Positions 1 to 28,143 are shown, numbered from the stretch's first letter. The stretch is 32,000 nt of DNA from Nitrosomonas europaea (GCF_900167395.1 NZ_FUWK01000032.1:914-32913); one strand, 5' to 3'. The notes: generated by a model not told the origin, from the letters alone. Numbers and translations are program-made.

Positions 1-657
1 TCCATCTTGGAGATAGACGATCAAGGCAGCCTGAAATTTCAAGGAAAATCCATTACTGCAGACGATCTTTATAGAGAATTATGCTCTATCGAGGTCACAC
101 TTCCTGCATCGAGCAAAGGAGATTCTGTTGACATGGATTTTGAGGGATTGCTGTTTCAACAGCGCATAGCCAACCATCCGGAAATTACAAAACTGACTGG
201 ATTTAAAATGCTGCAAACGATCAGAATCTGCACGCATGTAACCGATAATAATCAGGTTGAGATACTTTTCGCTTTTATGAAGCTTGCTGGCCAGGAAGGC
301 CTAGCCGATGCCTTTAATCTTGGCAAAACCGGTAATATGCTGGCAAAAATCGATCCAGCCACAGGCAAGTTTTGCAATGTCTATGCAATGGATCAGCAGC
401 AAGGCTATCTTGTAGAAACCACTCACCATGCAGTAACACAAGCAAATTTGCTAAATTTTACCGTTCCTCATTGGCAGGCATGTTTGACGCTAGCCATGAA
501 ATTATCCACCACTTTCCTGCCATTGCGTGCAGTCGGATGGGATATTGCCATTACTGACAACCGCCCTGTGGTACTCGAAGGCAATGACAACTGGGTGCCT
601 GTTGTCCCCTTTGATATCAACATCGATAAGCTCAAGCAATACAAACTGAAATCTTGA
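1..657 (+). CDS. sugar-transfer-associated ATP-grasp family protein (ATP-grasp_ST-like), C-terminal part; 5' end lies outside the window
   Basis: The frame is open from base 1, with stop TGA at 655-657. Several blocks align by eye with the 665-1750 ORF: VGWDIAITDNRPVVLEGNDNW vs IGWDVAVTNEGPFLIEGNVFW (ATP-grasp ExN Mg-binding motif), LQTIRI vs LQSLRL, and FTVPHW vs FTIPFW. Confidence 0.6.
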   Translation, partial: SILEIDDQGSLKFQGKSITADDLYRELCSIEVTLPASSKGDSVDMDFEGLLFQQRIANHPEITKLTGFKMLQTIRICTHVTDNNQVEILFAFMKLAGQEGLADAFNLGKTGNMLAKIDPATGKFCNVYAMDQQQGYLVETTHHAVTQANLLNFTVPHWQACLTLAMKLSTTFLPLRAVGWDIAITDNRPVVLEGNDNWVPVVPFDINIDKLKQYKLKS

Positions 658-664
658 TAGAAAT

Positions 665-1750
665 CTAGTTCACGAGAGGCGCATTCAGCGCCATAAGCAA
701 TTGACATATAGCCTGCATACTCCCCTCTTGAGGCGTTAACGGATCCCAGAAGACATTACCTTCAATTAAAAAAGGACCCTCATTGGTCACCGCAACATCC
801 CAACCGATAGTCCGTAATGGAGCAAATGCTTTCTGGGCATTCAGAACAAGCACTACACATTGATTCCAGAAAGGAATTGTAAATTCTGTTTTCTTTCCAC
901 TGATATCTTCAATATAGTCATAACGCACCAGATACTTTTTTATGTGATCATACTTAATGAAGCTCTCAATTTTTCCGTACTCATCAATTAAACATAGACG
1001 CCCATTACTTATTCCCCATGAAAAATTATCAATCAGGTTTCCTTGTTTAGGAAACTTGATTTTTCGAATAATCAGTTTGGGCTGACCATTTTCATCAAGA
1101 CAGGTAATCAAACGCAAGCTTTGCAAAACTGTATTCCCCGTAAATTCCGCAATAGCTTGATGACTGTATAACCTTTTTTGCAAGATATATCGATCAGGGT
1201 TTTCAGCTAGTATTTTCTTGAATACATCACGTAATGACAAACTTAAATCGGTAGTAAATCGATGTACACCATCCACAAAATCCAAAGCTGATACCCCTTT
1301 ACCATGGTAACCATAGACGGGCTTCATAATAATGTCAAAAGGATAACGAGCCAATCCATCCAACAAATTATTTTTGGTCTCAATGCCCTGCCCATTCTCC
1401 CAATAGGATTGGCCATTTGGGTCAAAAACTGCTACTAATTCGGGAACAGATAAGTTGTTCTTAATACAGTGATGATGAAATGCAATTTTATCTTCCGTTA
1501 GATACCAATGTGAAGCAGGATTCACTTTTTTCTGTAAATGCAGAAAGCATTCTTTACTGATCATCCCATTACGTTCTTCATTATTCCAGGATGGGTTAAG
1601 CAAATCTTCCATGAATATCTCCACTGGCGAATACTGCTCTGATGTCGCCAGCTGAAGAAAGCGCAGGTAGCTCGCTATTTTTGGATAATGATTAACTCTG
1701 GTTATCTCATTTACCTGCTTGACAGCAGCATACAATTTTTGAAGTTTCAC
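665..1750 (-). CDS. sugar-transfer-associated ATP-grasp family protein (ATP-grasp_ST-like)
   Basis: 361-aa ORF with GTG start at 1750 and TAG stop at 665-667. ATP-grasp features: IIMKPVYGYHGKGV (Lys/Gly-rich loop), YILQKRL, and C-terminal LIEGN. It is the last gene of the co-directional eps operon, 18 bp after the previous gene. Confidence 0.6.
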   Translation of the reverse strand: MKLQKLYAAVKQVNEITRVNHYPKIASYLRFLQLATSEQYSPVEIFMEDLLNPSWNNEERNGMISKECFLHLQKKVNPASHWYLTEDKIAFHHHCIKNNLSVPELVAVFDPNGQSYWENGQGIETKNNLLDGLARYPFDIIMKPVYGYHGKGVSALDFVDGVHRFTTDLSLSLRDVFKKILAENPDRYILQKRLYSHQAIAEFTGNTVLQSLRLITCLDENGQPKLIIRKIKFPKQGNLIDNFSWGISNGRLCLIDEYGKIESFIKYDHIKKYLVRYDYIEDISGKKTEFTIPFWNQCVVLVLNAQKAFAPLRTIGWDVAVTNEGPFLIEGNVFWDPLTPQEGSMQAICQLLMALNAPLVN

Positions 1751-1768
1751 TACGATATAGAGTATGGA

Positions 1769-2842
1769 TTAGGTTAGTTTTGAATATAAATGAGGAACTG
1801 GATCAGTTATTGCTTGAACAAATCCGCGCACACTACCCACCGAGAGATTTTTCCAACCTTTATGTGGTAACAACAATTGCTTCCATAAGGAACCAGCCAG
1901 ACAATAGCGCCCTTCTCCAGATTTTTCAGAAATTTTAGGCAACGTCCCTGTTTTTGTGTAATGAATGCCCATTTCGATAAAATTTAATCCCTGCCACATC
2001 GAAGCAGAAATGGTATACCAAGCTCTGGGATTACATTCGATCACATATAATTTGCCATCACGTGCATCAATACGCATGTCAAAATGAGCCAACCCCTCGT
2101 AATGGAAAGCTTGAACCAATCGTGTAGCAATCGCATGCATTTCCGGATGTTGAGTAAACTCAAGTACCCCATCTTCCAGCCAGGATTGGACGGTATTGCA
2201 CAGTATTCGATCATTCGCAGCCAGAATACTGATATCGATATCGCGCCCCGGTATATACGACTGTACAATCAACGGTAATTGTGCGTAGTGTGAGTCCTGT
2301 TCGATATACGTACGCAAAGCTTGAAGATTATCCAAACGCACCACCCCGTGACTAGACTCAGCCTCTAATGGCTTTACAATGAGTGGAAAACCAACTGGAT
2401 CAAGAGTGCTGGTATCAAGCTGATCAGAAGATGTCAACAGGATTGTCGGAGGGATAGGCAATCTATATTTCGCACAGGTTTGTGCAAAAGACCACTTATT
2501 ATGTAATGTATCCAGTATCACCTGATCACTACAAGGAAAGCATGGTAAATCTGGATAAGCCTTTTTTGTGGCCGCTAAGAACGCCGCACTGCCCATGTCA
2601 GATGGCAATATGATATCAAAATTCTCCCCTTGAACTCTCTCTCTCAGTAATTGCTGAGTCTTTACAGATGGCAGACCATCCTGCCAAAATTGAACCTCAC
2701 TATGTCCATCCGTATAACGAGAATATTTAAGTATTCGTGCACCGCGCGGCCCCGCTGTCTGAACAAAAGCATTCATGCCCTTCAAGCAATATAATACCTT
2801 CAACCCCAATGGACCAGATTCACAGAGCAACAATACTTTCAT
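1769..2842 (-). CDS. ATP-grasp domain protein (carboxylate-amine ligase type)
   Basis: 357-aa ORF. Motifs: PLIVKPLEAESSHGVVRL, LIVQSYIPGRDIDISILA, and HFDMRIDARDGKLYVIECNPRAW (the ExN motif of the ATP-grasp fold). Confidence 0.65.
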   Translation of the reverse strand: MKVLLLCESGPLGLKVLYCLKGMNAFVQTAGPRGARILKYSRYTDGHSEVQFWQDGLPSVKTQQLLRERVQGENFDIILPSDMGSAAFLAATKKAYPDLPCFPCSDQVILDTLHNKWSFAQTCAKYRLPIPPTILLTSSDQLDTSTLDPVGFPLIVKPLEAESSHGVVRLDNLQALRTYIEQDSHYAQLPLIVQSYIPGRDIDISILAANDRILCNTVQSWLEDGVLEFTQHPEMHAIATRLVQAFHYEGLAHFDMRIDARDGKLYVIECNPRAWYTISASMWQGLNFIEMGIHYTKTGTLPKISEKSGEGRYCLAGSLWKQLLLPHKGWKNLSVGSVRGFVQAITDPVPHLYSKLT

Positions 2843-2908
2843 GATATTTACATATAATCCAAATAATAAGACGATATAAGTTTAAGTAAAAACTACTCTG
2901 ACCTTAAT

Positions 2909-3847
2909 CTAGGCCTTGGATCGAAATAGTTTTTTTATGGCCGCTTTCACACCAAATTTATCCAGCATTCGAACAATGCCATCCGATAATTTGTCGCTGC
3001 TCGCATGCAGTGCCACTTTGATTAAATTGAGCCAGGTACGCCGAAAATAATACACATCTGCACAATATTGATTGTTGGTTGCAAAAAATGCCTTATGCGC
3101 ACCTTCTCCCTCGGTAAAATCAAAGATTTTTATATGACTTGCCGTAAACATACGCTGCAAAGCAAAATATTGCAGTAGAGTACCGGGAGACCAACGTTGA
3201 TATTCCGGGTCATGACCCACGTATTCGTAGAGAGCAATCCCGTCATGTACTGGACAATAAATATAAGCGATCGGCTTTTTCTGATAAAAAAGAAGATAAC
3301 CTCGTACGTTATCCTCAGCAGCAAGCGCTAGCATATTCTCTTGAAATTGTTGATCAGAAGGTAAACCACAATCGAGCAGCCGCTCCTGATAAGTTTTTTG
3401 TGAAACTTCCATTGCCAGCTTATAAAATTCATGCATTTCTTCCGGTTTGCAATATTCCCTCCAATCTATCTCTCCTCCTGATAACTCAGCAAATCTTTTT
3501 ATTTTTCGCAAGAGTGTGTTTCTGGATTTGGCAGAAAATTTTTTCAGATAATCTTCAAAATTGCCATCAAGTACGACCCAGTATCGTCGATAGCTTGAAG
3601 GAATATACTGAATCGCTTGGGGCAATATGCTTAGCTTAGCTAGCGATGATTCTATCGGATGAGAACGTGTCACTACTACGTCAACAGAATCTCTGAATAA
3701 TTTTGGAAGCTCTGCCGGTACGGTTGGATGGATAGGAAGTTTAGTGAAATGAGTTTTCAGTACGCAGGCATTCAATGGCCAGGCGAGAACACTCATTTCT
3801 CCCAATCGCACAGTGAAGTTTATTGATTGCCTGGACCATTCTTCCAT
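2909..3847 (-). CDS. CelD/BcsL-like GNAT-fold acyltransferase (Acetyltransf_6 / FemAB-fold)
   Basis: 312-aa ORF. Characteristic blocks: FSAKSRNTLLRKIKRF, GYLLFYQKKPIAYIY, WSPGTLLQYFALQ, FDFTEGEGAHKAFFAT. The ATG at 3847 overlaps the upstream TGA by 1 nt (TGATG). Confidence 0.6.
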   Translation of the reverse strand: MEEWSRQSINFTVRLGEMSVLAWPLNACVLKTHFTKLPIHPTVPAELPKLFRDSVDVVVTRSHPIESSLAKLSILPQAIQYIPSSYRRYWVVLDGNFEDYLKKFSAKSRNTLLRKIKRFAELSGGEIDWREYCKPEEMHEFYKLAMEVSQKTYQERLLDCGLPSDQQFQENMLALAAEDNVRGYLLFYQKKPIAYIYCPVHDGIALYEYVGHDPEYQRWSPGTLLQYFALQRMFTASHIKIFDFTEGEGAHKAFFATNNQYCADVYYFRRTWLNLIKVALHASSDKLSDGIVRMLDKFGVKAAIKKLFRSKA

Positions 3848-4839
3848 CAGAAAAACCTTGAATGGATCTGCTCAGCATAACGCTTAATCGTATGATGCAG
3901 ACGAGAATATAAAATTTTCTGTGGCCTTATTTCAGGAATCGTTATTGGATCAAGCTCGGAAAACAGAGTAGTTCTAAATTTATCGGGATGATCAGATAAA
4001 AATTTACACAAATGATTAAAGCGACTGATATTCAATTTATCCGGCAAACTTAATTTACCGATACTTCTGCCTTTAACTAGCTCAAAACTATGCAAGACAA
4101 TTACAAATGAAAACCAGCCTTGTCGCCAGGCATTGAGTAAGACTGTTTCCATTTCTTTTGTAGAACATGCTGCCAGTTGGACATGTCGCCAATGGTTTGG
4201 ATAATCCTGAAAAAAAGAAATAGGGAATTCCCATACACCCTCAATCTTACATGGCTGAAGCAACTGTTCATTCAGATCAATCTTGCAATCTTCGCCCAGA
4301 TAGCAAGAGTTATAGCTGGAATCAAACAACAGCTTATTTTGTGCTACAGCGCGTAACGTATCCCGATTAGCACCATAACCTCCAGCGCGAAAGGCATGTA
4401 GTTCTTTTACGCCAGCTGCCTGAAGACTGCGTATTCCCTTTGCAATTAAGGTCACCTGCTCATCTAAAGTGAATTGATGCATGTATTGCTTAAAATGGAC
4501 AGGAATAGTTGGATCATAAATTTCACTGAGCCATTCAGTATGCAAGTGTAGCTGGACTTCCTGGTCATTACGTTGAATCAAATCAACTATGTCTGCAAGA
4601 TGATTGCTGCCAATCCGGTCAGCAAACAGTGGCTCCAGAAAATAAGTGGCTTTTAATCCATACTGATTAAATCGCTCAATTTGATAAGGCAGCCCGAATT
4701 CACCTTCAGATGTTTTGCCATAAAAGCATGCAGCAATTTCTTCATCAAACGCTATTTTATACGGTGACAAGGCACGTACCGGCCAGCCATCGGAATAAGG
4801 CCATAGCTCAGTGTCAACGGTGAGATAAACGTTCAACAT
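3847..4839 (-). CDS. polysaccharide deacetylase-like (CE4/NodB-fold-like) protein
   Basis: 330-aa ORF with AGGAG 4 nt upstream of the ATG at 4839. Its motifs parallel the core deacetylase at 11955-12803: YLTVDTE vs LTIDVED, HLHTEW vs SHGYAHH, and FRAGGYG vs YRAPSFS. Confidence 0.45.
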   Translation of the reverse strand: MLNVYLTVDTELWPYSDGWPVRALSPYKIAFDEEIAACFYGKTSEGEFGLPYQIERFNQYGLKATYFLEPLFADRIGSNHLADIVDLIQRNDQEVQLHLHTEWLSEIYDPTIPVHFKQYMHQFTLDEQVTLIAKGIRSLQAAGVKELHAFRAGGYGANRDTLRAVAQNKLLFDSSYNSCYLGEDCKIDLNEQLLQPCKIEGVWEFPISFFQDYPNHWRHVQLAACSTKEMETVLLNAWRQGWFSFVIVLHSFELVKGRSIGKLSLPDKLNISRFNHLCKFLSDHPDKFRTTLFSELDPITIPEIRPQKILYSRLHHTIKRYAEQIHSRFF

Positions 4840-4887
4840 TGAACTCCTGCCCCCCAGTCGAGAATCCTATGTTTTATTAAATCAATA

Positions 4888-6822
4888 TCAGGCAACCTTT
4901 TTATCCTGCCCGGTATATGACATATTCCCCATACTAAGTATGTTGCGCAAAAAAGCCTCAAACATCAATAGTGTCCAGATAGGTGCACTGTAATCCCGTC
5001 TGCCGGATTGGTGCTGGTCAAGCATTTTTTTGATGAATCCCATATCAAAAATTCCGGTACCAGCCAGTGTATTGCCCAGTAACGCAGTGCGCACACGTTC
5101 ACGTAATGGGCCGCGGAACCAGCTGGCCAATGGTACTGAAAAACCCATCTTGTTCCGGTAAAGCACTTCGTTCGGTAAATAGGGTTCCAGTGATCTTTTG
5201 AGAATATATTTTCCTTCCTGTTGACGTAACTTCATGGAGGCAGGCAACCCCGAAACCCATTCGACCAGTTCATGATCCAGCAGCGGGACCCGCACTTCCA
5301 GTGAATGCGCCATACTGGCACGATCCACCTTGGTCAGAATATCGCCCACCAGATAAGTTTTCATATCCAGATACTGAATCAGTGATAAAGCATCTTTTGT
5401 CGGGCTTTTATCCGCATAATCACGTAATACCTCTACCGCCCGATAGCCCTGCAGATCACGATAAAAATCCCGGGTAAATAACTGCATACGCAGCTTATTA
5501 TCCAGAATGGATACGCTGTGGAAATAACCTTCCACGGAATCGCGCGCAAGTGATTCAAATGTAGTTTTGGCACGCAGGAATTTCGGTGCCCAGTCCGCCT
5601 TAGGATAAACACTGCCCAACAGACCAAATAAAGGTTTACGCAATCCCAATGGTAATTTTGAACGCAACCGTTCCTCTATCATGTGCCAGCGATAACGGCG
5701 ATAACCGGCAAAATTCTCATCTCCTCCATCTCCGGAAAGCGCTACTGTCACCCGTTTCCTGGCTAACTCACAGACACGATAAGTCGGAATAGCAGAGCTA
5801 TCAGCAAATGGTTCATCGTAGAGCGCAGCCAGTCGATCGATGAGATCAAAATCATCTTGCTGAACCTGTTCAGTAAAATGCCGGGTCTGGTAGCGTTCAG
5901 CAACCAGCCGGGCATAATCCGATTCATCAAAAGCGGGATCGGAAAAAGCGATTGAACAGGTATTGACCGGTTCTTTCATCAGCCCCCCCATCATCGCAAC
6001 GACAGCACTGGAATCCACTCCACCGGAAAGAAATGCACCCAGCGGTACTTCACTCATGAGGTGACTATCCACCGCATTTCGCAATCGGAGAATCAATTCT
6101 TCTGCAGCTTCCTCTTCACTCAGAGAACCGTGCGGTGTAAACGGTATATCCCAGTATTCGCGGGATTGCACAGTCTGTTGCCCACGCTGCAATGACAACA
6201 GATGGCCAGGATTCAGTTTGAAGGCATTTTTAAAAATAGTTTTTGGCTCGGGAATATAGCCATAAGCAAAATAGTCTTCTATCGCCCGATGATCGAACGT
6301 TTTGTCAAAATCCGGATGAACCAGCAAGGCTTTGAGTTCCGAGGCAAACAGAAATAATCCGTTATCCAGCAGGGTATAGTAAAACGGTTTGATACCCAGC
6401 CGATCACGTGCCATGAACAATGTTTGCCGGTTACGATCCCACACACCAAAGGCAAACATACCACTGAAACGTTCGACACAACGTTCACCCCATTCTTCCC
6501 AGGCATGTACGATCACTTCCGTATCGCAATGGGTACGAAATCGATGCCCCAGCGCTGTCAACTCTCCGACCAGTTTCTGGAAATTATAGATTTCACCATT
6601 GAAGACAACGACCACGCTGCCATCTTCATTGAACAATGGCTGCTGACCGCTGGATACATCCATGATCGACAGGCGACGGTGCCCTAATCCCAGCCCTGAT
6701 TCAACATATACCTCTCCTTCATCCGGACCGCGATGCGTCAGTGTTTCATTCATGCGATGAAGCAGATTACGGTCGATCTCACTTGTACTGCGCGTATCAA
6801 ATACACCTGTTATGCCACACAT
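4888..6822 (-). CDS. asparagine synthase (glutamine-hydrolysing) family; exosortase A system-associated amidotransferase type
   Basis: 644 aa. The N-terminal MCGITG supplies the Ntn glutaminase Cys2. SGGVDSS is the PP-loop. The gene follows the second glycosyltransferase, as in conserved XrtA loci. Confidence 0.9.
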   Translation of the reverse strand: MCGITGVFDTRSTSEIDRNLLHRMNETLTHRGPDEGEVYVESGLGLGHRRLSIMDVSSGQQPLFNEDGSVVVVFNGEIYNFQKLVGELTALGHRFRTHCDTEVIVHAWEEWGERCVERFSGMFAFGVWDRNRQTLFMARDRLGIKPFYYTLLDNGLFLFASELKALLVHPDFDKTFDHRAIEDYFAYGYIPEPKTIFKNAFKLNPGHLLSLQRGQQTVQSREYWDIPFTPHGSLSEEEAAEELILRLRNAVDSHLMSEVPLGAFLSGGVDSSAVVAMMGGLMKEPVNTCSIAFSDPAFDESDYARLVAERYQTRHFTEQVQQDDFDLIDRLAALYDEPFADSSAIPTYRVCELARKRVTVALSGDGGDENFAGYRRYRWHMIEERLRSKLPLGLRKPLFGLLGSVYPKADWAPKFLRAKTTFESLARDSVEGYFHSVSILDNKLRMQLFTRDFYRDLQGYRAVEVLRDYADKSPTKDALSLIQYLDMKTYLVGDILTKVDRASMAHSLEVRVPLLDHELVEWVSGLPASMKLRQQEGKYILKRSLEPYLPNEVLYRNKMGFSVPLASWFRGPLRERVRTALLGNTLAGTGIFDMGFIKKMLDQHQSGRRDYSAPIWTLLMFEAFLRNILSMGNMSYTGQDKKVA

Positions 6823-6834
6823 ATTTTTATCCGG

Positions 6835-7998
6835 TCAGTTGATCGTTTCAGTTTTTGATTTATAACCCAGTACCCGATCATAAACCGCAAGATAACCATT
6901 TGTCATTGAACGCATACTGAACTGCTGCTCAATGATTGCTCGTGCATGCTGTCCGTGCTTGTATACCGCGGTATTATCCTGATGATATTGACTTATTGCA
7001 CGGGCCAGCGCGACCGGGTCTCCCGAAGGCACCAGACGGCCGGTTTCCCCCTCCAGAACCAGTTCGGTATTGCCTCCCACTCGAGTTGCAATAACCGGCA
7101 GGCCACTCGCCATGGCTTCCAGAACAGTATTGGAAATTCCTTCCCCCAAAGAGGGCAGTACGAACACATCCATTGCCTGCATCAGCTGAGGAATGTCGTC
7201 ACGTTCTCCCGGAAGCCAGGCAAATTGCTCAACTCCGGCTGAGCGCAGCATGGCCTCGCATTCTGCTCTCGCCACACCCTCTCCTGCAATGATGAGCCGT
7301 AATGGCCTGTCGATTTCAGATAATTCATTTCGCAACATCAGAAAAGCCTGTACCAGTGTCGGAAAATCCTTGACTGCCGCCATTCGGCCAACACTCCCCA
7401 CAACGAATGGCCTGCCAGCGAAGAAATCCGGAGGAAATATCTCGACCGGAACAGTGCCACCTGGATGGAAACGCAGATGTTCCACGCCGTTATAAATCTG
7501 GTGTACTTTCACTGGAGATACCTTCACCGTATCAATCAACCAGTTTTCCAGATCTTTACTGACGGTAATGAAGTGGTGGATAAACGGGCGAATTGCCTTG
7601 CGCAACAGATTGTATTTCCAGTTTTTACCGTCGAGGTCAAAAATATCCCGGCCATGTTCCCCATGCACCCGTGCCTTCACACCTGCCACAGCAGCAACCA
7701 CCTGCGCTTCCATAGCTGTGAGATTACGCGTGTGCACGATATCCGGCTTAAGTTGCCTGAACACTCTGTAAAGTTTGCCGTAGACACTGAAATCTTTTCC
7801 TTCGCGTTTGTTCAGCGCAATGATCTCGACATCATCCCGGTTAAGGCGTTTGTGAAATTCCGAGAATCCCTTGAGGCAAATGATGGCATGCCGGTAACGA
7901 TCCGCAGGAATATGATTGATCAGATTCACCAGACCATTTTCGAGCCCGCCTACTCCCAGATGAAAAATCACATGCACAATCAGAGGAGGATGGGACAT
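6835..7998 (-). CDS. group 1 (GT4) glycosyltransferase, PEP-CTERM/EpsH1 system-associated type
   Basis: The ORF-track start at 8058 is a TTG that overlaps xrtA by 44 nt. I prefer the internal ATG at 7998 (MSHPPLIVHVIFHLGVGGLENGLVNLINH), which leaves a 16-bp gap. GT4 EX7E region: PSLGEGISNTVLEAMASGLPVIAT. Confidence 0.8.
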   Translation of the reverse strand: MSHPPLIVHVIFHLGVGGLENGLVNLINHIPADRYRHAIICLKGFSEFHKRLNRDDVEIIALNKREGKDFSVYGKLYRVFRQLKPDIVHTRNLTAMEAQVVAAVAGVKARVHGEHGRDIFDLDGKNWKYNLLRKAIRPFIHHFITVSKDLENWLIDTVKVSPVKVHQIYNGVEHLRFHPGGTVPVEIFPPDFFAGRPFVVGSVGRMAAVKDFPTLVQAFLMLRNELSEIDRPLRLIIAGEGVARAECEAMLRSAGVEQFAWLPGERDDIPQLMQAMDVFVLPSLGEGISNTVLEAMASGLPVIATRVGGNTELVLEGETGRLVPSGDPVALARAISQYHQDNTAVYKHGQHARAIIEQQFSMRSMTNGYLAVYDRVLGYKSKTETIN

Positions 7999-8014
7999 TA
8001 CTCTGATCTCCGCC

Positions 8015-9613
8015 TCAGTCAGTCTGTGCGCTGTGAACAGCCTGAAGTTTCCCGGCAATCACTGGCTTCATATCAGCCATAAACTCGCGCAGTACTGCTG
8101 CAGCCTCTTCCGGATCATGCTCATAGCCCGCAGCAATGATGATCTCGGCGCCATCATCTCCATTGCCCCAAACTCGATTTAGCGCCTGAATCATTTTGGC
8201 AACGTAAGGGTCAGCCGTTTCATAGCCGATCAGCCAGAACCACCTCCAGATCAGCAAGCGCTCTTTCGAAGCATGTAACTGATTCTGGTGCACAGTGAAC
8301 GGTGCATCACCCAGCGAAATATTCCGCTTGCTTCCATCCATATTTCGCCACCTGCTGTCCCGGTCACTCACCAGAACATTGCTGGAACTGACCAGTTTGT
8401 TATTCTGATCCTGATTCCGGTAATATGTTATATAAAGACCAACATGTTTATTTTCGCGATAGAAATGACCAATGAACTGCCTGGGAAAACCAATATAACC
8501 AGGTATCCAGTCAGTAAGAGAAGCTGAGGCCGTACTCCATTTACCGGAAAGATCTGCCACACTGATTTCCGATATCGGGCGTACATCGGATTTATTATTC
8601 AAATAATTCAGATAAACTGGCCAGATCATGGCGACTGCCACCACCAGTCCAGCCATGCCCAACGTTGATTTAATCGGGACGGAAGAAGATTCCAGACTAG
8701 CTGAGGAAGAATTTTCAACTGATACGGTTTCATCAAGATGATCTTCCCGCCAGAATGAGCCGATCCAGAACAGCAGCAACATGACCAGACCAAAAAAGAT
8801 CCAGCCATAAACCAGATGATCGACACCAACCGCCAGTTGCATATCACTGAGATGACCGGTCATGACGATCAGATATGCGCGCACCCCGTTGGCAACGATC
8901 GGTACTACGATCGAAAATGCAATGAATATCAGTCTCCGGCTGATACTGTGGTAGGTCAGATAGGCGTAAAGTGTTCCCAACGTCACCGAAGCAATCAGAT
9001 AACGCACTCCGCTACAGGCTTCCACAACCGACCAGTTACCGCTGGGAATACTGAAGAAACTCCCCTCACGATAAACCGGAATACCAGTTGCCTGTAACGC
9101 GCCAACGGTAAAATCAGCTGTAAAATCAATGAGAGGTGGAATGAATATTTCACCGAATGGTACAGCAAACAGCAGATATGCAAGTGGAAACAGAATGGCA
9201 CTAAAAGCGCGTAAACCAAGCAAAGCCCAGACGATCACTGGTATCATCGCGACCAGAGCGTACTGTTCCACCACCACAACACTTGCAGCAGAAGCCAGCA
9301 ACCACCCCGCCCCCAGCCCGACCAGCACCGATAATGGCATATAGTCAGGACGGTATTGAATCGTCGATAGCATTGCACGCTTTTTCCAGATCATGTACAC
9401 GCTGAACGGGAGGATCAGGTAACCATGAGCATAGGTATCAGACCGGTTCCAGATAGCTACCATCGATTCGACGGTTGTATGATAAATACCCAGGATGACG
9501 GCGATTACCAGCAAGGTGATCAATGCTGTCACACTTCGCCCGTTAATCATTCTGCTGCCGACAGCAGTACGTTGTGATTGAACTGTAATATTCATGGCAG
9601 AACCATCAGTCAA
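8015..9613 (-). CDS. xrtA: exosortase A (XrtA) fused to a C-terminal EpsI-family domain
   Basis: 532 aa. The N-terminal ~290 aa are polytopic membrane protein carrying exosortase signatures: VVEACSGVRYL (catalytic Cys, about residue 200), NGVRAY, and HLVYGWIFFG. The C-terminal ~220 aa form a soluble EpsI-like domain (HVGLYITYYRNQDQNNKLVSSSN). TTG start at 9613 is preceded by GGAAGG; an alternative ATG lies at 9595. Confidence 0.85.
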   Translation of the reverse strand: MTDGSAMNITVQSQRTAVGSRMINGRSVTALITLLVIAVILGIYHTTVESMVAIWNRSDTYAHGYLILPFSVYMIWKKRAMLSTIQYRPDYMPLSVLVGLGAGWLLASAASVVVVEQYALVAMIPVIVWALLGLRAFSAILFPLAYLLFAVPFGEIFIPPLIDFTADFTVGALQATGIPVYREGSFFSIPSGNWSVVEACSGVRYLIASVTLGTLYAYLTYHSISRRLIFIAFSIVVPIVANGVRAYLIVMTGHLSDMQLAVGVDHLVYGWIFFGLVMLLLFWIGSFWREDHLDETVSVENSSSASLESSSVPIKSTLGMAGLVVAVAMIWPVYLNYLNNKSDVRPISEISVADLSGKWSTASASLTDWIPGYIGFPRQFIGHFYRENKHVGLYITYYRNQDQNNKLVSSSNVLVSDRDSRWRNMDGSKRNISLGDAPFTVHQNQLHASKERLLIWRWFWLIGYETADPYVAKMIQALNRVWGNGDDGAEIIIAAGYEHDPEEAAAVLREFMADMKPVIAGKLQAVHSAQTD

Positions 9614-9675
9614 AATAACCTTCCGCTAATGTATCTGGATATGGCAGAAACGGCCCATTTTTACTGAACCTTAAC

Positions 9676-10872
9676 CTAGGGTGCCGCAAGCAACGCATCG
9701 ATTCGTGACAGATTAGCCGGCCAGGTGTAATCCTGCAGAACTCGTTCTCTCGCCAGTCGTCCCATGGTTACCTGTTCATCAGAGTCGAGAAGCAAGAGAA
9801 TCTGCTCAGCAAAATCCCCGGCATCCCCAGCCACGATCAGTTCCTTCTCTGATACGGCATGAATTCCCTCCATTGCCTGTACGGAAACAACAACAGGTTT
9901 TTGCATGGCCATTGCCTCCAGCACTTTGTTCTGGATACCCCGCGCAATCCGCAAGGGAGCAACTGCCACTGCTGCATGTATAAGATACGGCCGAATATCC
10001 TCTACAGCGCCGGTCACATAGATCCCCGGCAAATCTGCCAGCATCTGTACCTGTCTGGCGGGTTTAGCACCCACAATATAAAAATCGACATCCGGCTGTT
10101 TCGTGCGTATCGCAGGAAATACTGAATTTGCAAACCAGCTTACTGCATCGATATTAGCCCAATAATCCATGGCACCTGTAAACACCAGCACTTTCTTTGC
10201 AGCCGGATAAGGATTGAGATAACTACGCTGAGGGGAAAAAAAATCGGTATCGACACCATTATTGAAGAATGTCGTCTTACTTGCTGCATCCGGCGCAAGC
10301 TGCCGGAATAACTCCGCCTCTTTTTCCGAAACAAAAGTTGAATGGCTGAATTCTTCCGCCACTTTCCTTTCATAATTCAGCAAATATCGTGATTCCCTGT
10401 GATAAATCCGGTTGAACGGCCACTGCTTTGATAAAGCGTACTGCCGCCATTTATCCGAATCCACATCAACGAAATCGATGATGCGCCGACAACCAGATAA
10501 ATGTTCAACATACTGCGCCATGGCAGAAGAGAAAACCACAATATCCTGTATGGATTCATTGCTGAACAGCGCTTTAATCCACTGCATCAGCCTCGCGTCG
10601 CGATAATAAGCCAGTGTCAGCGGATCATTCCCGAACAACGCAAACAGGCTTCTTATCCTGGCCGACAGCGGATTCAGCCTGACAATGCATACATCCTGAC
10701 AATACTTTCTGACTTCATCTTCATACTGCCAGTCTTCTTCATCATCAATGAACGTTCCCAGGTACACACGATAACGCTTGCTGAGGTGCTGCAGAAGATG
10801 AAAAGAACGTATCTTGTCTCCCTTATTGGGTGGATAAGGAATTCTGTGTGTCAGATAAAGGAGTCCCCGCAT
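9676..10872 (-). CDS. glycosyltransferase, PEP-CTERM/EpsH1 system-associated type
   Basis: 398 aa. The N-terminus MRGLLYLTHRIPYPPNKGDKIRSFHLL is typical of the XrtA-locus sugar transferase family. The gene lies directly upstream of xrtA, as in conserved loci. Confidence 0.8.
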   Translation of the reverse strand: MRGLLYLTHRIPYPPNKGDKIRSFHLLQHLSKRYRVYLGTFIDDEEDWQYEDEVRKYCQDVCIVRLNPLSARIRSLFALFGNDPLTLAYYRDARLMQWIKALFSNESIQDIVVFSSAMAQYVEHLSGCRRIIDFVDVDSDKWRQYALSKQWPFNRIYHRESRYLLNYERKVAEEFSHSTFVSEKEAELFRQLAPDAASKTTFFNNGVDTDFFSPQRSYLNPYPAAKKVLVFTGAMDYWANIDAVSWFANSVFPAIRTKQPDVDFYIVGAKPARQVQMLADLPGIYVTGAVEDIRPYLIHAAVAVAPLRIARGIQNKVLEAMAMQKPVVVSVQAMEGIHAVSEKELIVAGDAGDFAEQILLLLDSDEQVTMGRLARERVLQDYTWPANLSRIDALLAAP

Positions 10873-10878
10873 CCTTTC

Positions 10879-11958
10879 TTAACCCAGATTTTTAACGATA
10901 TGCGGGCCGAGCATATTGGCCAGAGCCAAAGGCATCTTCTGCCAAGCCTTGATAAAAAGCTGATACTTTGGATTAAGCGGATTATGTTCAGGAATCGTTT
11001 TTGCTTGATGGAGCTGGTATTCATAAAACAACGGCTGCGGCTCAAACCCCCAGTTCTTTTTAAAACTGTATGATCCGGTTCCTCGCTTGCTGCGTCCGAA
11101 ATCGAAAACCCGGTAGCCCCGTTCACAGGCACGCCGCATCAGTTCCCAGTACATGAAATCATTACCCGCCAGATCTCGAGCCGCGTCCGTTCCACCGCCA
11201 TAATAAGGCAGCACTTCATCCCGGAAATAGAAACTCATGACTGCGCTGACTACATTTTCATCTTTAGTGATAATGAGCAGCTCACAATCTTCTGCAAAAA
11301 CACTTTTCAATAACCGGAAATATTTGCGGGAAAAAACTGGTGTACCCAGGCGATGTACACTGGCTGAATAGGCTCGAAAAAAATGGTCGGTATCCTGATC
11401 CAGATAGCTCTGCAACTCATATTTCATCCCTTTACGTACCATGGCACGCTGCTTGCGGGGAATTGCCAGCATGTTTTGCTCTACATCAGAATCCATGGTT
11501 TTGCGGAACGTAACGTATAAATCTTTAGTGGGCCAATCGTGGTGAAAAGGGTGAAGATGACGATATTCCAGATAATCAACCTTCAGATATGTTGCCAACA
11601 TCTGGGCTGCCTGATCAAGGCGGATTCGTGCGTCATCTGATATTGCAGCAATACCACCATACACACAAAATGGCAAAGCACTCAGGCTGTGCCCGAATAA
11701 CAAACTGTCAATCTCTGCCAGAGGCAATACACCTTGAATACACCCGCCCTCTTCTATATACAGGAACCAGGTTTTATGCCCGAAAGCTTGTTCTATCACC
11801 TGCTTCCATCCGGCACGGTGAAAAAAGGTCGCTTCAGGACAAGCCATGATGAACTCATCCCAAGCCTGGAATTTATCTGGGGATAACACAGAAATCCCGG
11901 GTAATGCGCCTGGAAACAAATAAGGCGTATTTTGCACAATAGAACCGCTGAAACTCAC
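10879..11958 (-). CDS. FemAB-family protein, PEP-CTERM system-associated type
   Basis: 359 aa. Blocks: EATFFHRAGWKQVIEQAFGH and FDFGRSKRGTGSYSFKKNWGFEP. The GTG start overlaps the upstream TGA (GTGA). Confidence 0.75.
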   Translation of the reverse strand: MSFSGSIVQNTPYLFPGALPGISVLSPDKFQAWDEFIMACPEATFFHRAGWKQVIEQAFGHKTWFLYIEEGGCIQGVLPLAEIDSLLFGHSLSALPFCVYGGIAAISDDARIRLDQAAQMLATYLKVDYLEYRHLHPFHHDWPTKDLYVTFRKTMDSDVEQNMLAIPRKQRAMVRKGMKYELQSYLDQDTDHFFRAYSASVHRLGTPVFSRKYFRLLKSVFAEDCELLIITKDENVVSAVMSFYFRDEVLPYYGGGTDAARDLAGNDFMYWELMRRACERGYRVFDFGRSKRGTGSYSFKKNWGFEPQPLFYEYQLHQAKTIPEHNPLNPKYQLFIKAWQKMPLALANMLGPHIVKNLG

Positions 11959-12803
11959 ACCGACTGTCGCAGGAAAATCTGATCCATACGCCCCCAGTCG
12001 AAATGTCGGATCAGGGCATCGAGCCGTTTTTCCATACGACCCAGATTAAGGTAATGACGAAAACGCGTCTTGAAGCTAATTCCCACTTGCCGGGGCTGAT
12101 CGGGATCGATCTCCCATGGGTGAAAATAAAAAATTGCAGGTTGACGATCAACTGAGTTGACTCTCTGCAAAAACCAGCGCGAAACCGCATAGGGCCAAAG
12201 ACGGAAATAGCCGCCTCCACCTGCTGGAAAATTACGATCCAGCAAGCGTACAGTAGTTACCGGTAATTCAAGTATTTTCCGGGAGCCAGTCGGATTAAAG
12301 GCAAAACGCGGAGCGTCCGGCATACCGTAATGATCATGCTCTACCGGATAAATACTGGAACTATATCGATAGCCTGCTTCTTCCAGGTAATCCAGCGCCC
12401 AGAGATTATCTTTATTGATAGAAAAACTGGGGGCACGATACCCCCAGACAGACTGCCCACCAATATCTTCCAGCAGGAATTTACTGCGAGCAATATCATC
12501 ATAAAACTGCCCGCGGCTCAGCTCAGTAACACGGTGATGGGCATAACCATGACTGGCCAGTTCATGGCCATTCTCAACAATTCTTTTCACCATGGACGGA
12601 TAACGCTCTGCTATCCAGCCCAATGTAAAAAAAGTGGCCTTGATTTTATGCTCGTCCAGCAACACGAGAATCCGGTCAATATTGCGCTCGACTCTGCATG
12701 GCAAACTATCCCAGGATGAACGCGGAATATACCGGGCAAAAGCCGATACCTGGAAATAATCTTCCACATCAATGGTCAACGCATTACGGATCATAAGATT
12801 CAT
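11955..12803 (-). CDS. polysaccharide deacetylase, PEP-CTERM locus subfamily
   Basis: 282 aa. Blocks: NALTIDVEDYFQVSAF, ELASHGYAHH, GYRAPSFSI. The start overlaps the upstream ATPase gene (ATGA). Confidence 0.85.
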   Translation of the reverse strand: MNLMIRNALTIDVEDYFQVSAFARYIPRSSWDSLPCRVERNIDRILVLLDEHKIKATFFTLGWIAERYPSMVKRIVENGHELASHGYAHHRVTELSRGQFYDDIARSKFLLEDIGGQSVWGYRAPSFSINKDNLWALDYLEEAGYRYSSSIYPVEHDHYGMPDAPRFAFNPTGSRKILELPVTTVRLLDRNFPAGGGGYFRLWPYAVSRWFLQRVNSVDRQPAIFYFHPWEIDPDQPRQVGISFKTRFRHYLNLGRMEKRLDALIRHFDWGRMDQIFLRQSV

Positions 12804-13633
12804 TCAGGAGAAACCGCCAGATCAAACTCTTTTTGAATATCGAGCATTACTTCATTCGCTTCAGCTTTACCCAAAGTCTGTAATTCTTCCAAACACCCCA
12901 TGATCAGCAATCTGTCACAAAACAGATTGATTTTACGAGGAATCCCGGCAGAAAAATTATGTATCACTTCAAAAATCTCATCCTGCAGTACAGGACTTCC
13001 ATTCCAACCGGCTTTTTGAAGACGATGTTCGATATAGGCCCTGGTTTCCGCCTGATCCAGCGGACCCAGATGATAGGTGGCAATCACTCTCTGGCGCAGT
13101 TGCTGCATTTGACTGCCGAGCAACGTCCTCCTGAACTCTGGCTGGCCAAGTAAAAAGGTTTGTAACAAAGGCCTGTTATCTGACTGAAAGTTCGATAACA
13201 TCCGCAATTCTTCAAGTGTCTGCGGAAGAAGATTTTGTGCCTCATCAACCACTAGTAAAACTCGTGTACTTTCCCGTTCACACTTACGCATAAATCGTTC
13301 GAGCTCGAGCAGCAATGCAGCCTTGGACAGACCTTCATAAGAAAGGCCAAAAGCAGCAGCTACCATTCTCAAGGCATCATCCGGGTCCAGCCGTGTACTC
13401 ACCAATTGTGCAGCCGCCACCCGCTCTTGCCTCAACTTCTGGAACAGGTAGCGCATCAGGGTTGTTTTGCCAGCGCCTACATCACCCGTAATGATGATAA
13501 AACCATCTTCCTGCGAAAGGCCGTATTCAAGATAAGCCGCAGCACGTTTATGGCCTCGACTGGGAAAAAAGAAATTCGGGTCGGGTTTTAACTGAAACGG
13601 CTTCTCAGCAAAACCATAGTAGGCTAGATACAT
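12800..13633 (-). CDS. ExeA/GspA-like AAA ATPase, PEP-CTERM locus secretion ATPase type
   Basis: 277 aa. Walker A is GDVGAGKTTL and Walker B is LLVVDEAQNL. The N-terminus MYLAYYGFAEKPFQLKPDP is typical of ExeA-like proteins. Confidence 0.8.
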   Translation of the reverse strand: MYLAYYGFAEKPFQLKPDPNFFFPSRGHKRAAAYLEYGLSQEDGFIIITGDVGAGKTTLMRYLFQKLRQERVAAAQLVSTRLDPDDALRMVAAAFGLSYEGLSKAALLLELERFMRKCERESTRVLLVVDEAQNLLPQTLEELRMLSNFQSDNRPLLQTFLLGQPEFRRTLLGSQMQQLRQRVIATYHLGPLDQAETRAYIEHRLQKAGWNGSPVLQDEIFEVIHNFSAGIPRKINLFCDRLLIMGCLEELQTLGKAEANEVMLDIQKEFDLAVSPE

Positions 13634-13647
13634 AAAATTTCAATTTT

Positions 13648-16157: not shown

Positions 16158-16197
16158 ATCCACTCCATCATTATATTACAACCCTTACACCATCAAT

Positions 16198-17748: not shown

Positions 17749-17790
17749 ATCGGGTCACCTCTTCATTTATCACGATCACGATCAAATCAA

Positions 17791-18408
17791 TCAAAAAAAG
17801 CTTTCAGGAATAACCAGCACATCGCCCTGGTAAACCGGAACATTGGCGGAGATATCACCATCCCGAATCAGGTCTTCCAGTCTGACCCGGAATTGCTGCT
17901 GTTCACCATCGACATTCCGAATAATTCTTGCTCTGTTTCCTGCTGCAAAATCAGTCAACCCTCCCACCGCAATCATGACATCCATCAATGACATGTTTTC
18001 CCGGTAAGGTAATGCCTGTGGTTGCGCTGCCTCGCCGATCACCCGGATCTGCTCACTGAACGGTCCGACGAAACCAGTTATAACGACGGTGACTACCGGC
18101 TGCTGTAAATATTTAGAAAGAGTCTCTTCGATATTACGTGCCAGTTCGGTTGAAGTCTTTCCACTTGCCGGCAAATCCTCTACGAGTGGTGTAGTAATCT
18201 TCCCGTCCGGACGCACCGGCACACTCATGGATATTTCCGGATTGCGCCAAACGATGATATTTAATGTGTCACCCGGTCCGATCAGATAATCATGCGGCAC
18301 CTGTTCACCTTGAGTAGAAAGTAATGGATAAGTCGTGCAACCACCGAGTGCAAGCAGATAAAAAATGACTGATAGACTGACTATCCAGGCTTTAATGGAA
18401 ATATTCAC
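17791..18408 (-). CDS. epsE: polysaccharide export protein (Wza/Poly_export-like), EpsE type
   Basis: 205 aa with a lipoprotein-like signal (LLALGGC). The block YLIGPGDTLNIIVW matches the PGD motif of the Poly_export domain. GTG start at 18408 has GAGGG 6 nt upstream. This is the first gene of the operon. Confidence 0.8.
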   Translation of the reverse strand: MNISIKAWIVSLSVIFYLLALGGCTTYPLLSTQGEQVPHDYLIGPGDTLNIIVWRNPEISMSVPVRPDGKITTPLVEDLPASGKTSTELARNIEETLSKYLQQPVVTVVITGFVGPFSEQIRVIGEAAQPQALPYRENMSLMDVMIAVGGLTDFAAGNRARIIRNVDGEQQQFRVRLEDLIRDGDISANVPVYQGDVLVIPESFF

Positions 18409-28129: not shown

Positions 28130-28143
28130 ATAGCGAAGTAAAA

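Follow-up and report, generated by a model that had tools for sequence, protein, structure and literature searches.

A strain-variable set of ATP-grasp, acyltransferase and CE4-like genes at the distal end of the Nitrosomonas europaea XrtA exopolysaccharide cluster

Downstream of the XrtA exopolysaccharide (EPS) operon of Nitrosomonas europaea ATCC 19718 lies a tail of five genes that we read, with moderate confidence, as the strain-variable tailoring end of the cluster (positions 1-4839 of the window, the 32,000-nucleotide stretch of DNA analysed here). Judged by the protein families that it encodes, this segment would serve to decorate a lipid-linked repeat unit through amide bonds. If this is so, the EPS repeat unit would bear amino acids or short peptides as amide-linked side groups, and their composition would depend on the strain.

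Gene order at the distal end of the XrtA cluster

The XrtA core occupies positions 18408 to 4888 on the minus strand, and its final gene encodes an AsnB-type XrtA/PEP-CTERM amidotransferase (4888-6822, minus strand) that matches TIGR03108 over its full length (1150.9 bits; cut-off 816.9) and also carries Asn_synthase and GATase_7 matches. The rest of the core (6835-18408, minus strand), all of whose members score above NCBIfam cut-offs, includes genes for an export protein, a chain-length determinant, a tyrosine autokinase, a TIGR03016 OMP, an ATPase, stp1, an XrtA-EpsI fusion and stp2. Within this span are found the XrtA-system polysaccharide deacetylase (11955-12803, minus strand; TIGR03006, 480.1 bits) and the core FemAB-family protein (10879-11958, minus strand; TIGR03019, 555 bits), the genes of which overlap by 4 nt. 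The 11 genes upstream of the tail all match exosortase-A-associated models of NCBIfam/TIGRFAM, and the five tail proteins have no match among the XrtA-associated NCBIfam models; the amidotransferase gene is thus the last with such a match, as a previous sequence-only reading of this DNA had proposed.

Beyond the amidotransferase gene there are four co-directional genes followed by one convergent gene. The first, separated by a 48-bp spacer, encodes a divergent CE4/NodB-fold protein of 330 aa (CE4L; 3847-4839, minus strand), and its stop codon overlaps by 1 nt the start codon of a gene for a 312-aa Acetyltransf_6 acyltransferase (CelD/BcsL-like, GNAT clan; 2909-3847, minus strand). A spacer of 66 bp leads to the gene for a generic ATP-grasp carboxylate-amine ligase of 357 aa (AG; 1769-2842, minus strand), which is followed after 18 bp by that for ST1, an ATPgrasp_ST ('sugar-transfer associated') ligase of 361 aa (665-1750, minus strand). 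The second ATPgrasp_ST ligase, ST2 (1-657, plus strand), is cut by the window, its start lying outside and its C-terminal 218 aa inside; the full-length protein has 373 aa (11094-12215 of L002). ST1 and ST2 meet 3′ end to 3′ end with their stop codons 7 bp apart, so that the arrangement previously termed head-on is a convergent one. Recomputed coordinates reproduced the ORFs and spacings of the sequence-only reading as well as its tally for the locus of three ATP-grasp, two Acetyltransf_6-type and two deacetylase-like proteins and one amidotransferase.

With spacers of up to 66 bp, the tail is closely packed with the XrtA operon, and no terminator signal above chance was found among the tail genes behind that of the amidotransferase. 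The tail region continues for about 2.6 kb past the window start. All five ORFs are intact and full length compared with their homologues, and none of the five proteins contains a hydrophobic segment; all are predicted to be soluble and cytoplasmic. A search for published experimental or expression data on the tail genes found none.

Family and fold assignments of the tail proteins

The description of the first tail protein as CE4-like failed at the level of Pfam and held at the level of the fold. CE4L scores 13.7 bits against Polysacc_deac_1 (PF01522; E 0.061), below the gathering score of 23.1, and has no Pfam or NCBIfam match above threshold. Its AlphaFold (AF2) model (pLDDT 92.7) finds ArnD (8t0j, E 1.7e-8) and the CE4 deacetylases 3rxz, 2cc0 and 3qbu as top Foldseek matches, with a probability of 1.0 to ArnD, 3rxz, 2cc0 and HP0310 and TM-scores of 0.5-0.7 on the target, and the modelled structure is a CE4/NodB fold (a deformed beta/alpha barrel), an assignment made at the fold level only. 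CE4L has at least 432 homologues; among 24 of them residues D9, E11, H100, E102, R151, D173 and H250 are invariant and H98 is near-invariant, and the spacings D9-x-E11 and H98-x-H100 are variants of the canonical CE4 motifs TFDD (D-D) and H-x3-H. Since these metal and catalytic motifs are unlike those of canonical CE4 enzymes, another hydrolytic activity is possible; CE4L is predicted to de-N-acylate an amino sugar carried on a nucleotide or a lipid.

The adjoining acyltransferase matches Acetyltransf_6 (PF13480) over residues 107-252 (62.6 bits, E 6.1e-17; gathering score 22). Its earlier designation as a FemAB-fold aminoacyl transferase was not borne out: there is no match to the FemAB Pfam models (PF02388, PF04339), its family profile retrieves no PDB chain at E<=1, and hhalign gives a probability of 0.8% between its family and the core TIGR03019 FemAB family. 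These comparisons lend no support to an identity of the tail protein as a FemAB/FemX aminoacyl-tRNA-dependent transferase. Similarity to FemX belongs to the core acyltransferase family, whose profile finds in the PDB FemX, the lipid II:glycine glycyltransferase and an aa-tRNA-dependent peptide synthase.

The two ATPgrasp_ST calls and the generic ATP-grasp call were upheld by Pfam/NCBIfam profiles. ST1 (117.2 bits, E 1e-33) and the ST2 fragment in the window (184.3 bits, E 3.5e-54) are clear members of PF14397 ATPgrasp_ST ('sugar-transfer associated ATP-grasp'; gathering score 31.4), a name that reflects computational association with sugar-transfer genes, and are about 25% identical to each other. 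The family was reportedly first described by Iyer et al. in 2009. No characterised member or solved structure of PF14397 was found, and ST1 has no relative in the PDB by sequence; its AF2 model (pLDDT 89.8) has an ATP-grasp fold that matches RimK, Ddl, LysX and DcsG (TM 0.4-0.55) as well as PurK, and its catalytic residues K143, D318, E330 and N332 are invariant. AG scores above the gathering score for Dala_Dala_lig_C (2.9e-12), ATP-grasp_3 (3.7e-10) and ATPgrasp_Ter (9.5e-10), has RimK and Ddl as its nearest PDB sequences (E about 5e-6), and contains the Mg/ATP motif VIECNPR. All three ligases, which share Mg-binding E-x-N motifs (LIEGN, VLEGN, VIECN), are assigned on these profiles and motifs, and for ST1 also on the modelled fold, to the ATP-grasp superfamily. 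No match to the TupA-like model was obtained at E<=0.01 for ST1, ST2 or AG, nor was there one in the other tail proteins.

AG falls far below the cut-offs of the Ddl, RimK, LysX and GSH-S equivalog models (for Ddl, 47.8 vs 245.65 with TIGR01205 and 46.2 vs 243 with PRK01372), and its 18 bits against GSH-S_ATP lie under the cut-off of 23. Scores below the equivalog cut-offs rule out AG as a housekeeping Ddl or GshB, and the sequence-only reading, which depended on the ATP-grasp genes standing apart from housekeeping Ddl and glutathione synthetase, survives on these model scores.

Recurrence, strain variation and erosion

Neighbourhoods of 78 CE4L loci were surveyed, with 20 kb seen. An exosortase gene is present in 16, an AsnB-like gene in 27, an adjacent Acetyltransf_6 gene in 26 and an ATP-grasp gene in 13, and genes for exosortase, AsnB and GT4 are over-represented in these loci. 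CE4L directly follows the XrtA amidotransferase in seven other Nitrosomonas-clade loci and five Oxalobacteraceae loci, and CE4L and Acetyltransf_6 form a widespread pair in several phyla. All five tail genes recur only in N. eutropha Nm57. Four of them (CE4L, Acetyltransf_6, AG and ST1) recur in the metagenome-assembled genome (MAG) L010, where ST2 and genes for MurF-like ligase/peptidyl-tRNA-hydrolase fusions (MurL-Pth) are absent from the neighbourhood, implying that the four co-directional genes can stand alone. N. eutropha Nm24 and HPC101 have other genes in place of the ATP-grasp trio, so that the ligase set is swapped between strains. The idea that the tail co-occurs as one unit across XrtA loci was thus not sustained, the conserved part being CE4L with or without Acetyltransf_6.

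Related loci extend the theme. In Nm57 the tail runs on into two MurL-Pth genes and a Wzx flippase gene. At the corresponding place, Nm24 has second Acetyltransf_6 and AsnB genes together with genes for a GNAT, an ATPgrasp_ST, a RimK-like protein and a flippase, and islands of this kind are also present in Azoarcus PA01, Nitrosomonas HPC101 and Marinobacter. Sister loci thus add amide-bond enzymes and then a MOP/Wzx flippase or Wzy, an association consistent with a glycan that is decorated with amino acids or peptides. The same islands, in which MurF-like ligases and a MOP flippase recall the logic of peptidoglycan precursors, could also be taken to mean that the cassette equips the EPS or a lipid carrier with a short peptide or amine handle, onto which exosortase A would load PEP-CTERM proteins; such a handle would be the Gram-negative equivalent of sortase A's pentaglycine bridge, which FemXAB builds. 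This would accord with the deacetylase and FemAB-family pair that the XrtA core always has, with the match of its profile to FemX and the lipid II:glycine glycyltransferase, with the repetition of this deacetylase and acyltransferase logic in a tail that adds peptide-bond ligases, and with the exosortase and PEP-CTERM proteins adjoining a MurL-Pth gene in Marinobacter. We consider it very unlikely, however, because the argument is one of pure analogy, because an essential acceptor should be conserved and the tail is strain-variable, and because 62 of the 78 loci, among them sets of CE4L, Acetyltransf_6 and ATP-grasp genes, show no exosortase in the 20 kb seen.

Parts of the module are also found away from EPS genes, which means that its target need not be EPS. 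In L087, an Acetyltransf_6 gene and an ATPgrasp_ST gene that overlap by 4 nt form an isolated pair amid housekeeping genes (ABC-F, Dus and RNA modification). In L086, a convergent ATPgrasp_ST pair with three MurL-Pth genes has genes for AMP-binding and acyl-CoA dehydrogenase proteins as neighbours, and no glycosyltransferase gene occurs within 9 kb. A Syntrophales locus (L091) has two tandem MurL-Pth genes outside any EPS context. Together with ATP-grasp structures that match RimK, LysX and Ddl equally well, these loci speak for a module that merely adjoins the EPS operon and makes or modifies a different product, such as a small peptide metabolite, a precursor of peptidoglycan or lipid, or a protein by RimK-style tailing. 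Such a target is unlikely in our judgement, given that the tail is closely co-directional with the amidotransferase gene and XrtA, that CE4L has a sugar-deacetylase fold and the gene associations described above, and that flippase, Wzy, glycosyltransferase or exosortase genes adjoin MurL-Pth in 5/7 contexts examined.

The tail segment is strain-variable and is partly eroded just outside the window. Of a MurF-like+Pth gene only the last 76 codons remain there, interrupted by an 861-bp IS with 25-nt inverted repeats; the ~540 codons that preceded them have been lost. The Wzx flippase gene is split by a frameshift and lacks ~190 C-terminal residues. This distal erosion means that the pathway may be incomplete in N. 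europaea. The GC content of the tail is the lowest within the window (0.413, compared with 0.474 for the XrtA core and 0.50-0.55 for flanking housekeeping genes; GC3 0.375 and 0.474 for tail and core, respectively). The drop that had been estimated by hand is therefore real, but the later acquisition that it was taken to hint at is too simple an account, because the tail is common to Nm57 at core-like divergence and the GC of the CE4L gene tracks that of the core in other genomes.

The erosion and the low GC would also be expected of a decaying remnant that is functionless in ATCC 19718 today. We think this quite unlikely, since the five ORFs are full length and the four-gene set of MAG L010 stands without ST2 or MurL-Pth. 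Moreover, the five tail genes have dN/dS values of 0.08-0.16 relative to Nm57 (core 0.05-0.12, with similar dS) and are under purifying selection, a measure that integrates over the whole N. europaea-Nm57 divergence and is compatible with a very recent loss of function.

A candidate tailoring pathway and its precedents

With all enzymes predicted to be cytoplasmic, any decoration would be made on the precursor before export. The proposal of amide-linked decoration, which the additional amide-bond enzymes of related loci fit, is consequently best taken as tailoring of a precursor rather than of the exported polymer. For the preferred reading we infer substrates, an order of steps and the XrtA-linked polysaccharide as target. 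The tail enzymes would act on a nucleotide-sugar or undecaprenyl-linked repeat unit, from whose amino sugar CE4L would remove an N-acyl group (acetyl or formyl), a type of reaction that ArnD carries out on a sugar bound to a lipid. The Acetyltransf_6 enzyme, whose gene is translationally coupled to that of CE4L, might then attach a different acyl or aminoacyl group to the amine so exposed, and the three ATP-grasp ligases could form further amide bonds via acyl-phosphate intermediates, either adding amino acids to the substituent or amidating uronic-acid carboxylates in the manner of Campylobacter Cj1438. Finally, the upstream AsnB-type enzyme would amidate a carboxylate with glutamine-derived ammonia.

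Several known systems resemble parts of this scheme. ArnD, the undecaprenyl-phosphate-4-deoxy-4-formamido-L-arabinose deformylase, is the closest structural match to CE4L and is a CE4-fold enzyme whose substrate, an N-acylated amino sugar attached to a lipid, is processed at the cytoplasmic side; CE4L differs from it in motif residues and in lacking an arn operon context, and the two share 14% identity and a TM-score of 0.49-0.58. The core TIGR03006 and TIGR03019 pair, like the tail pair, consists of a cytoplasmic CE4-type enzyme followed by an Acetyltransf_6-domain acyltransferase with overlapping stop and start in the same operon, but the two pairs did not arise by recent duplication (BLASTP E 0.02 and 0.34; probability 0.8% with hhalign), and only the core pair matches XrtA-associated models.

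The peptidoglycan pathway (MurC-F, Ddl, FemXAB, MurJ) likewise combines a Ddl-like ATP-grasp enzyme with a transferase of the FemAB family and a flippase of the MOP family that work on a lipid-linked sugar, and Mur-type ligases occur in the Nm57 sister locus and, in remnant form, in N. europaea. Scores are nevertheless far under the housekeeping equivalog cut-offs (murF 204 vs 288.6; Ddl 47.8 vs 245.65), and the MurF-like proteins differ from peptidoglycan Mur ligases in the absence of the N-terminal domain, in their C-terminal peptidyl-tRNA hydrolase domain and in their EPS locus context.

The closest precedent is the C-terminal domain of Cj1438, a TupA-like ATP-grasp domain that amidates GlcA in the Campylobacter jejuni HS:2 capsule (PMC11800379). 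As in the tail, an ATP-grasp enzyme is encoded in a surface-polysaccharide locus; that of Cj1438 joins an amine to the C6 carboxylate of the sugar GlcA through an amide bond, in the cytoplasm and before export (PMC11800379 and references therein). Because Cj1438 is of the TupA-like family and the tail ligases are of the ATPgrasp_ST and generic ATP-grasp families, the likeness is one of functional analogy only. In Cj1438 the ligase domain shares a polypeptide with a GT2 polymerising glycosyltransferase; the tail ligases are free-standing and three in number.

The tail genes and their families

The core exopolysaccharide (EPS) genes of the exosortase-A (XrtA) locus end with an AsnB amidotransferase (4888-6822, minus strand), and a 48-bp spacer separates this gene from a tail of five further genes. 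The first encodes the CE4-like protein CE4L (330 aa; 3847-4839, minus strand) and overlaps by 1 nt the gene for AT6, an Acetyltransf_6 protein (312 aa; 2909-3847, minus strand). A 66-bp spacer leads to AG, a classical ATP-grasp (357 aa; 1769-2842, minus strand), and one of 18 bp to the ATPgrasp_ST protein ST1 (361 aa; 665-1750, minus strand). The convergent gene for a second ATPgrasp_ST protein, ST2 (1-657, plus strand), has its last 218 codons in the window, the full gene encoding 373 aa. This map of open reading frames (ORFs) agrees with the layout given in the sequence-only reading. A protein identical to ST1 is encoded in the N. europaea ATCC 19718 chromosome (AL954747.1), and gene order relative to NE1797, listed as the EpsH/EpsI of N. 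europaea (Haft et al. 2006, PMC1569441), makes the tail genes probably NE1794 to NE1790; a literature search on locus tags NE1790-NE1795 found nothing. A scan of 1-7000 gave 21 promoters (17.5 expected) and 5 terminators (6.3 expected), which is chance level and neither supports nor breaks the operon reading.

All 11 genes upstream of the tail score above NCBIfam cut-offs for exosortase-A-associated families: export, chain-length determinant, tyrosine autokinase, TIGR03016 outer-membrane protein, ATPase, TIGR03006 deacetylase, TIGR03019 FemAB-family, stp1, XrtA fused to EpsI, stp2, and TIGR03108 amidotransferase. The fused exosortase is a single 532-aa ORF (8015-9613) with an EpsI-family C-terminal domain, and as listed this ORF overlaps the start of the stp2 ORF; because a gene caller sets other starts for XrtA (526 aa) and stp2 (387 aa), long TTG-start ORFs in the mechanical ORF list are probably over-extended. 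Between the first gene of the locus and the divergent ettA lies an 830-bp gap of lower GC (18409-19235, about 0.42-0.43), from which the EPS operon is presumably transcribed and regulated; its sole ORF (100 aa; 18531-18833) has no family match.

CE4L falls below threshold for Pfam Polysacc_deac_1 (13.7 vs 23.1) and has no NCBIfam match either, yet its predicted model (pLDDT 92.7) finds ArnD and many CE4 deacetylases as structural matches, so that the earlier CE4-like label holds in structure and not in Pfam. In 24 homologues, residues D9, E11, H100, E102, R151, D173, and H250 are kept and H98 is nearly invariant, the family signature being an invariant D-x-E ... H-x-H ... R ... D ... H. In all, at least 432 proteins from many phyla belong to this family, which matches no Pfam or NCBIfam model above threshold and would deserve a profile model of its own.

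The Acetyltransf_6 call for AT6 was upheld (62.6 bits), but the FemAB fold that had been proposed for it was not: AT6 has no FemAB match, no PDB relative by sequence even with a 16-sequence profile, and no significant similarity to the core FemAB family in profile-profile comparison (probability 0.8%). The core family matches FemX, the lipid II:glycine glycyltransferase, and aminoacyl-tRNA-dependent peptide synthase, so that only the core gene is established as one for a FemAB-fold aminoacyl transferase. Comparison of the pairs also ruled out that CE4L and AT6 arose by recent duplication of the core deacetylase and FemAB genes.

ST1 and ST2 are clear ATPgrasp_ST members, as first assigned (117 and 184 bits; gathering score 31.4). 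AG passes three general ATP-grasp models and lies far below all housekeeping equivalogs (Ddl 47.8 vs 245.65; GSH-S 18 vs 23), and equivalog-model scores rule out Ddl, GshB, RimK, or LysX as the identity of the ATP-grasps; the sequence-only reading thus survives its own refutation test, a place of these proteins in housekeeping clades. ST1 is modelled (pLDDT 89.8) as a generic ATP-grasp to which no solved structure is close, and it has no PDB relative by sequence; its invariant residues include K143, D318, E330, and N332. Literature searches on ATPgrasp_ST/PF14397 and on "sugar-transfer associated" ATP-grasp found nothing.

A conserved pair and exchangeable ligases

The GC content of the tail genes is 0.39-0.44 (pooled 0.413; GC3 0.375) against 0.474 in the core (GC3 0.474), with the step at the AsnB/CE4L junction, and the lower GC first estimated for 665-4839 than for 4888-9613 is thus real. 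Neighbouring housekeeping genes have a GC of 0.50-0.55, a per-gene range that leaves out the ORF at 28126-29370 (plus strand), since the pooled value included this ORF and it is not the real gene at that place. It has no family match, is probably spurious, and overlaps a 577-aa ORF (28144-29877, minus strand) with two peroxidase-domain stretches, shorter than expected for a catalase-peroxidase.

The sequence-only reading took the drop in GC as a hint of later acquisition. As a recent event private to N. europaea this is ruled out by comparison with N. eutropha Nm57, which has all five tail genes in identical order with 71-87% identity; dS between the two is 0.64-1.30 for the tail and 0.99-1.57 for the core, and dN/dS is 0.08-0.16 and 0.05-0.12, respectively. 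In other genomes the GC of CE4L equals that of the core (e.g. 0.72 vs 0.71 in Oxalobacteraceae), and among the genomes compared the dip is greatest in N. europaea. The low GC of a variable polysaccharide region explains the dip as well as fresh acquisition does, and replacement by an allele from a lower-GC relative could also account for it.

For comparison of gene neighbourhoods, 79 CE4L loci were fetched from Beta-, Gamma-, and Alphaproteobacteria, Planctomycetota, Acidobacteriota, Synergistaceae, Rokubacteria, and others, and window proteins were mapped by tblastn and iterated HMMs; the maps rest on crude ORF calling and home-built HMMs, with Pfam spot-checks of the labels of 20 proteins. 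CE4L lies directly behind the XrtA amidotransferase in seven other Nitrosomonas-clade loci (L007-L012, L016) and in five Oxalobacteraceae loci, where glycosyltransferases instead of Acetyltransf_6 come next. Acetyltransf_6 adjoins CE4L in 26 of 78 loci, mostly directly downstream and co-directional, and the same 78 include an exosortase in 16, an AsnB-like gene in 27, and an ATP-grasp gene in 13 (nine within 5 kb; ten labels verified with Pfam). The AG-ST1-ST2 set is confined among the CE4L loci to N. europaea and Nm57, and a metagenome-assembled genome has AG-ST1. N. eutropha Nm24 and strain HPC101 retain CE4L and Acetyltransf_6, followed by a second, longer Acetyltransf_6, and Nm24 additionally carries a GNAT, a different ATPgrasp_ST, a RimK-like ligase, a Wzx flippase, and a second AsnB.

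The tail had been expected to co-occur as one unit across XrtA loci; the ligase set instead differs between strains, and the distribution of CE4L, Acetyltransf_6, and ATP-grasp genes shows a conserved two-gene unit (CE4L/Acetyltransf_6) joined to a strain-variable, swappable set of ligases, a pattern as in the variable stretch of O-antigen and capsule loci. Elsewhere (L087, 8060-10110), an isolated Acetyltransf_6 gene and the ATPgrasp_ST gene that follows it with a 4-nt overlap lie among housekeeping genes for translation and RNA modification, a setting which suggests that such a pair is able to act on a target other than EPS.

An eroded continuation and a Mur-ligase/Pth family

In Nm57 (L008, 15378-19190), behind the convergent ATPgrasp_ST gene come two tandem genes for proteins of about 625 aa that fuse a Mur ligase to a peptidyl-tRNA hydrolase (MurL-Pth), and then a MOP/Wzx flippase gene. 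In each fusion the middle and C-terminal domains of a Mur ligase (204 bits with the best model, murF, which is below its cut-off) are joined to a complete peptidyl-tRNA hydrolase domain that passes its cut-off with 133-139 bits. In the N. europaea genome locus (L002, where window position w is L002 position 11751 - w), an 861-bp insertion sequence (IS) with a two-ORF DDE transposase lies within 12296-13370, about 0.5-1.6 kb beyond window position 1, bounded by 25-nt inverted repeats (12348-12372 and 13184-13208). It sits inside a fusion-gene remnant, present on both sides of the IS, that covers residues ~541-616 only (52-70% identity), the last ~76 codons; the first ~540 are absent. The flippase gene is a frameshifted pseudogene (L002 13498-14396) in two fragments of 119 and 169 aa in different frames, is ~190 residues short at the C-terminus, and adjoins a low-molecular-weight phosphotyrosine phosphatase gene (L002 14393-14893); it is the only flippase seen beside the N. 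europaea XrtA locus. Because IS, remnant, and broken flippase stand where Nm57 has intact genes, the N. europaea region is what remains of a larger module.

A search for the MurL-Pth family gave 2666 matches, of which the best 120 are essentially all three-domain fusions, with a few truncated, that are called "aminoacyl-tRNA hydrolase" or MurF-type ligase where named. In the loci inspected (L008, L086, L088-L092), Mur_ligase_M and Mur_ligase_C are fused to a complete peptidyl-tRNA hydrolase. The genes are often in tandem and often beside ATPgrasp_ST, GNAT, AsnB, and flippase/Wzy genes: an Azoarcus sp. PA01 island has four ATPgrasp_ST, another ATP-grasp, and two Mur-type ligases with a GNAT, an AsnB, a flippase, and two CE4 genes, and a second HPC101 locus has a flippase, two Mur-type ligases, a RimK-like ligase, ATPgrasp_ST, GNAT, Wzy_C, and AsnB. 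Two Marinobacter loci lie within or beside EPS, exosortase, and PEP-CTERM genes. There are counter-examples, however, in a metagenomic contig (L086) with a convergent ATPgrasp_ST pair and three fusion genes and no glycosyltransferase within 9 kb, and in a Syntrophales contig with two fusion genes outside EPS context. A literature search combining Mur ligase, Pth, and ATP-grasp found no publication on this family, and the Lipocone paper had no relevant passage.

Proposed pathway and relation to known systems

Members of the CE4 family remove N- or O-acyl groups from sugars by hydrolysis, and for ArnD the substrate is a lipid-linked sugar on the cytoplasmic side. Amines are acylated by Acetyltransf_6 enzymes of the GNAT clan and by FemAB enzymes, and carboxylates are amidated by AsnB enzymes. 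ATP-grasp and Mur ligases form an acyl-phosphate from a carboxylate and then join it to an amine, and MOP flippases export lipid-linked oligosaccharides. None of the five tail proteins has a hydrophobic segment and all are therefore cytoplasmic. From family knowledge, cytoplasmic location, and gene order, the best reading is that the EPS repeat unit would be de-N-acylated by CE4L, then re-acylated, and then subjected to ATP-dependent amide ligation, all before flipping, giving a unit whose amino-acid or peptide side groups differ between strains; all substrates in this scheme are assigned by inference. The amino-acid or peptide decoration first proposed is retained in this best reading, with its site moved from exported polymer to precursor, and the first interpretation has partial support.

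A farther-reaching and quite improbable reading sees the tail, with its eroded continuation, as part of a widespread, uncharacterised pathway that would build a short peptidoglycan-like peptide stem on a lipid-linked EPS sugar, as exosortase A acceptor for PEP-CTERM proteins. A cytoplasmic CE4-fold de-N-acylase, Acetyltransf_6/FemAB-type transfer, and ATP-grasp and MurF-like/Pth ligases would act in turn, and PEP-CTERM proteins would be transferred onto the stem after flipping; in Gram-negative bacteria, exosortase A and stem would then correspond to sortase and the pentaglycine bridge. In the literature searched, no publication describes the chemistry of an exosortase-A-linked polysaccharide or says to which acceptor exosortase attaches its substrates, and searches for exosortase with FemAB or with asparagine synthetase found nothing.

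Among nitrifiers and other bacteria of soil and wastewater, flocculation and biofilm formation are driven by exosortase-A systems. The N. europaea locus shows that the variable end of their clusters is made up of amide-bond enzymes and not of glycosyltransferases alone. Concrete candidates for first biochemistry are the conserved CE4L and Acetyltransf_6 pair, with ATPgrasp_ST and MurF-like/Pth ligases as swappable parts, and two large, effectively unannotated families, CE4L and the Mur-ligase/Pth fusion, are flagged. If strain-specific, the decoration would serve phages and grazers in nitrifying biofilms for recognition, much as a serotype determinant does.

Five points go beyond the sequence-only reading: the conserved pair is separate from the swappable ligases, the enzymes would act in the cytoplasm on a precursor, AT6 does not bear out its FemAB label, the N. 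europaea region is eroded, and there is a link to an uncharacterised Mur-ligase/Pth fusion family. Amide decoration of surface polysaccharides by ATP-grasp enzymes is itself of an already known kind, at which the Pfam name of ATPgrasp_ST hints. The closest experimentally proven precedent is Cj1438, whose TupA-like ATP-grasp domain amidates glucuronate in the C. jejuni capsule (PMC11800379). This domain is of a different ATP-grasp family from the tail ligases, and the likeness is therefore one of mode of action only, not of membership.
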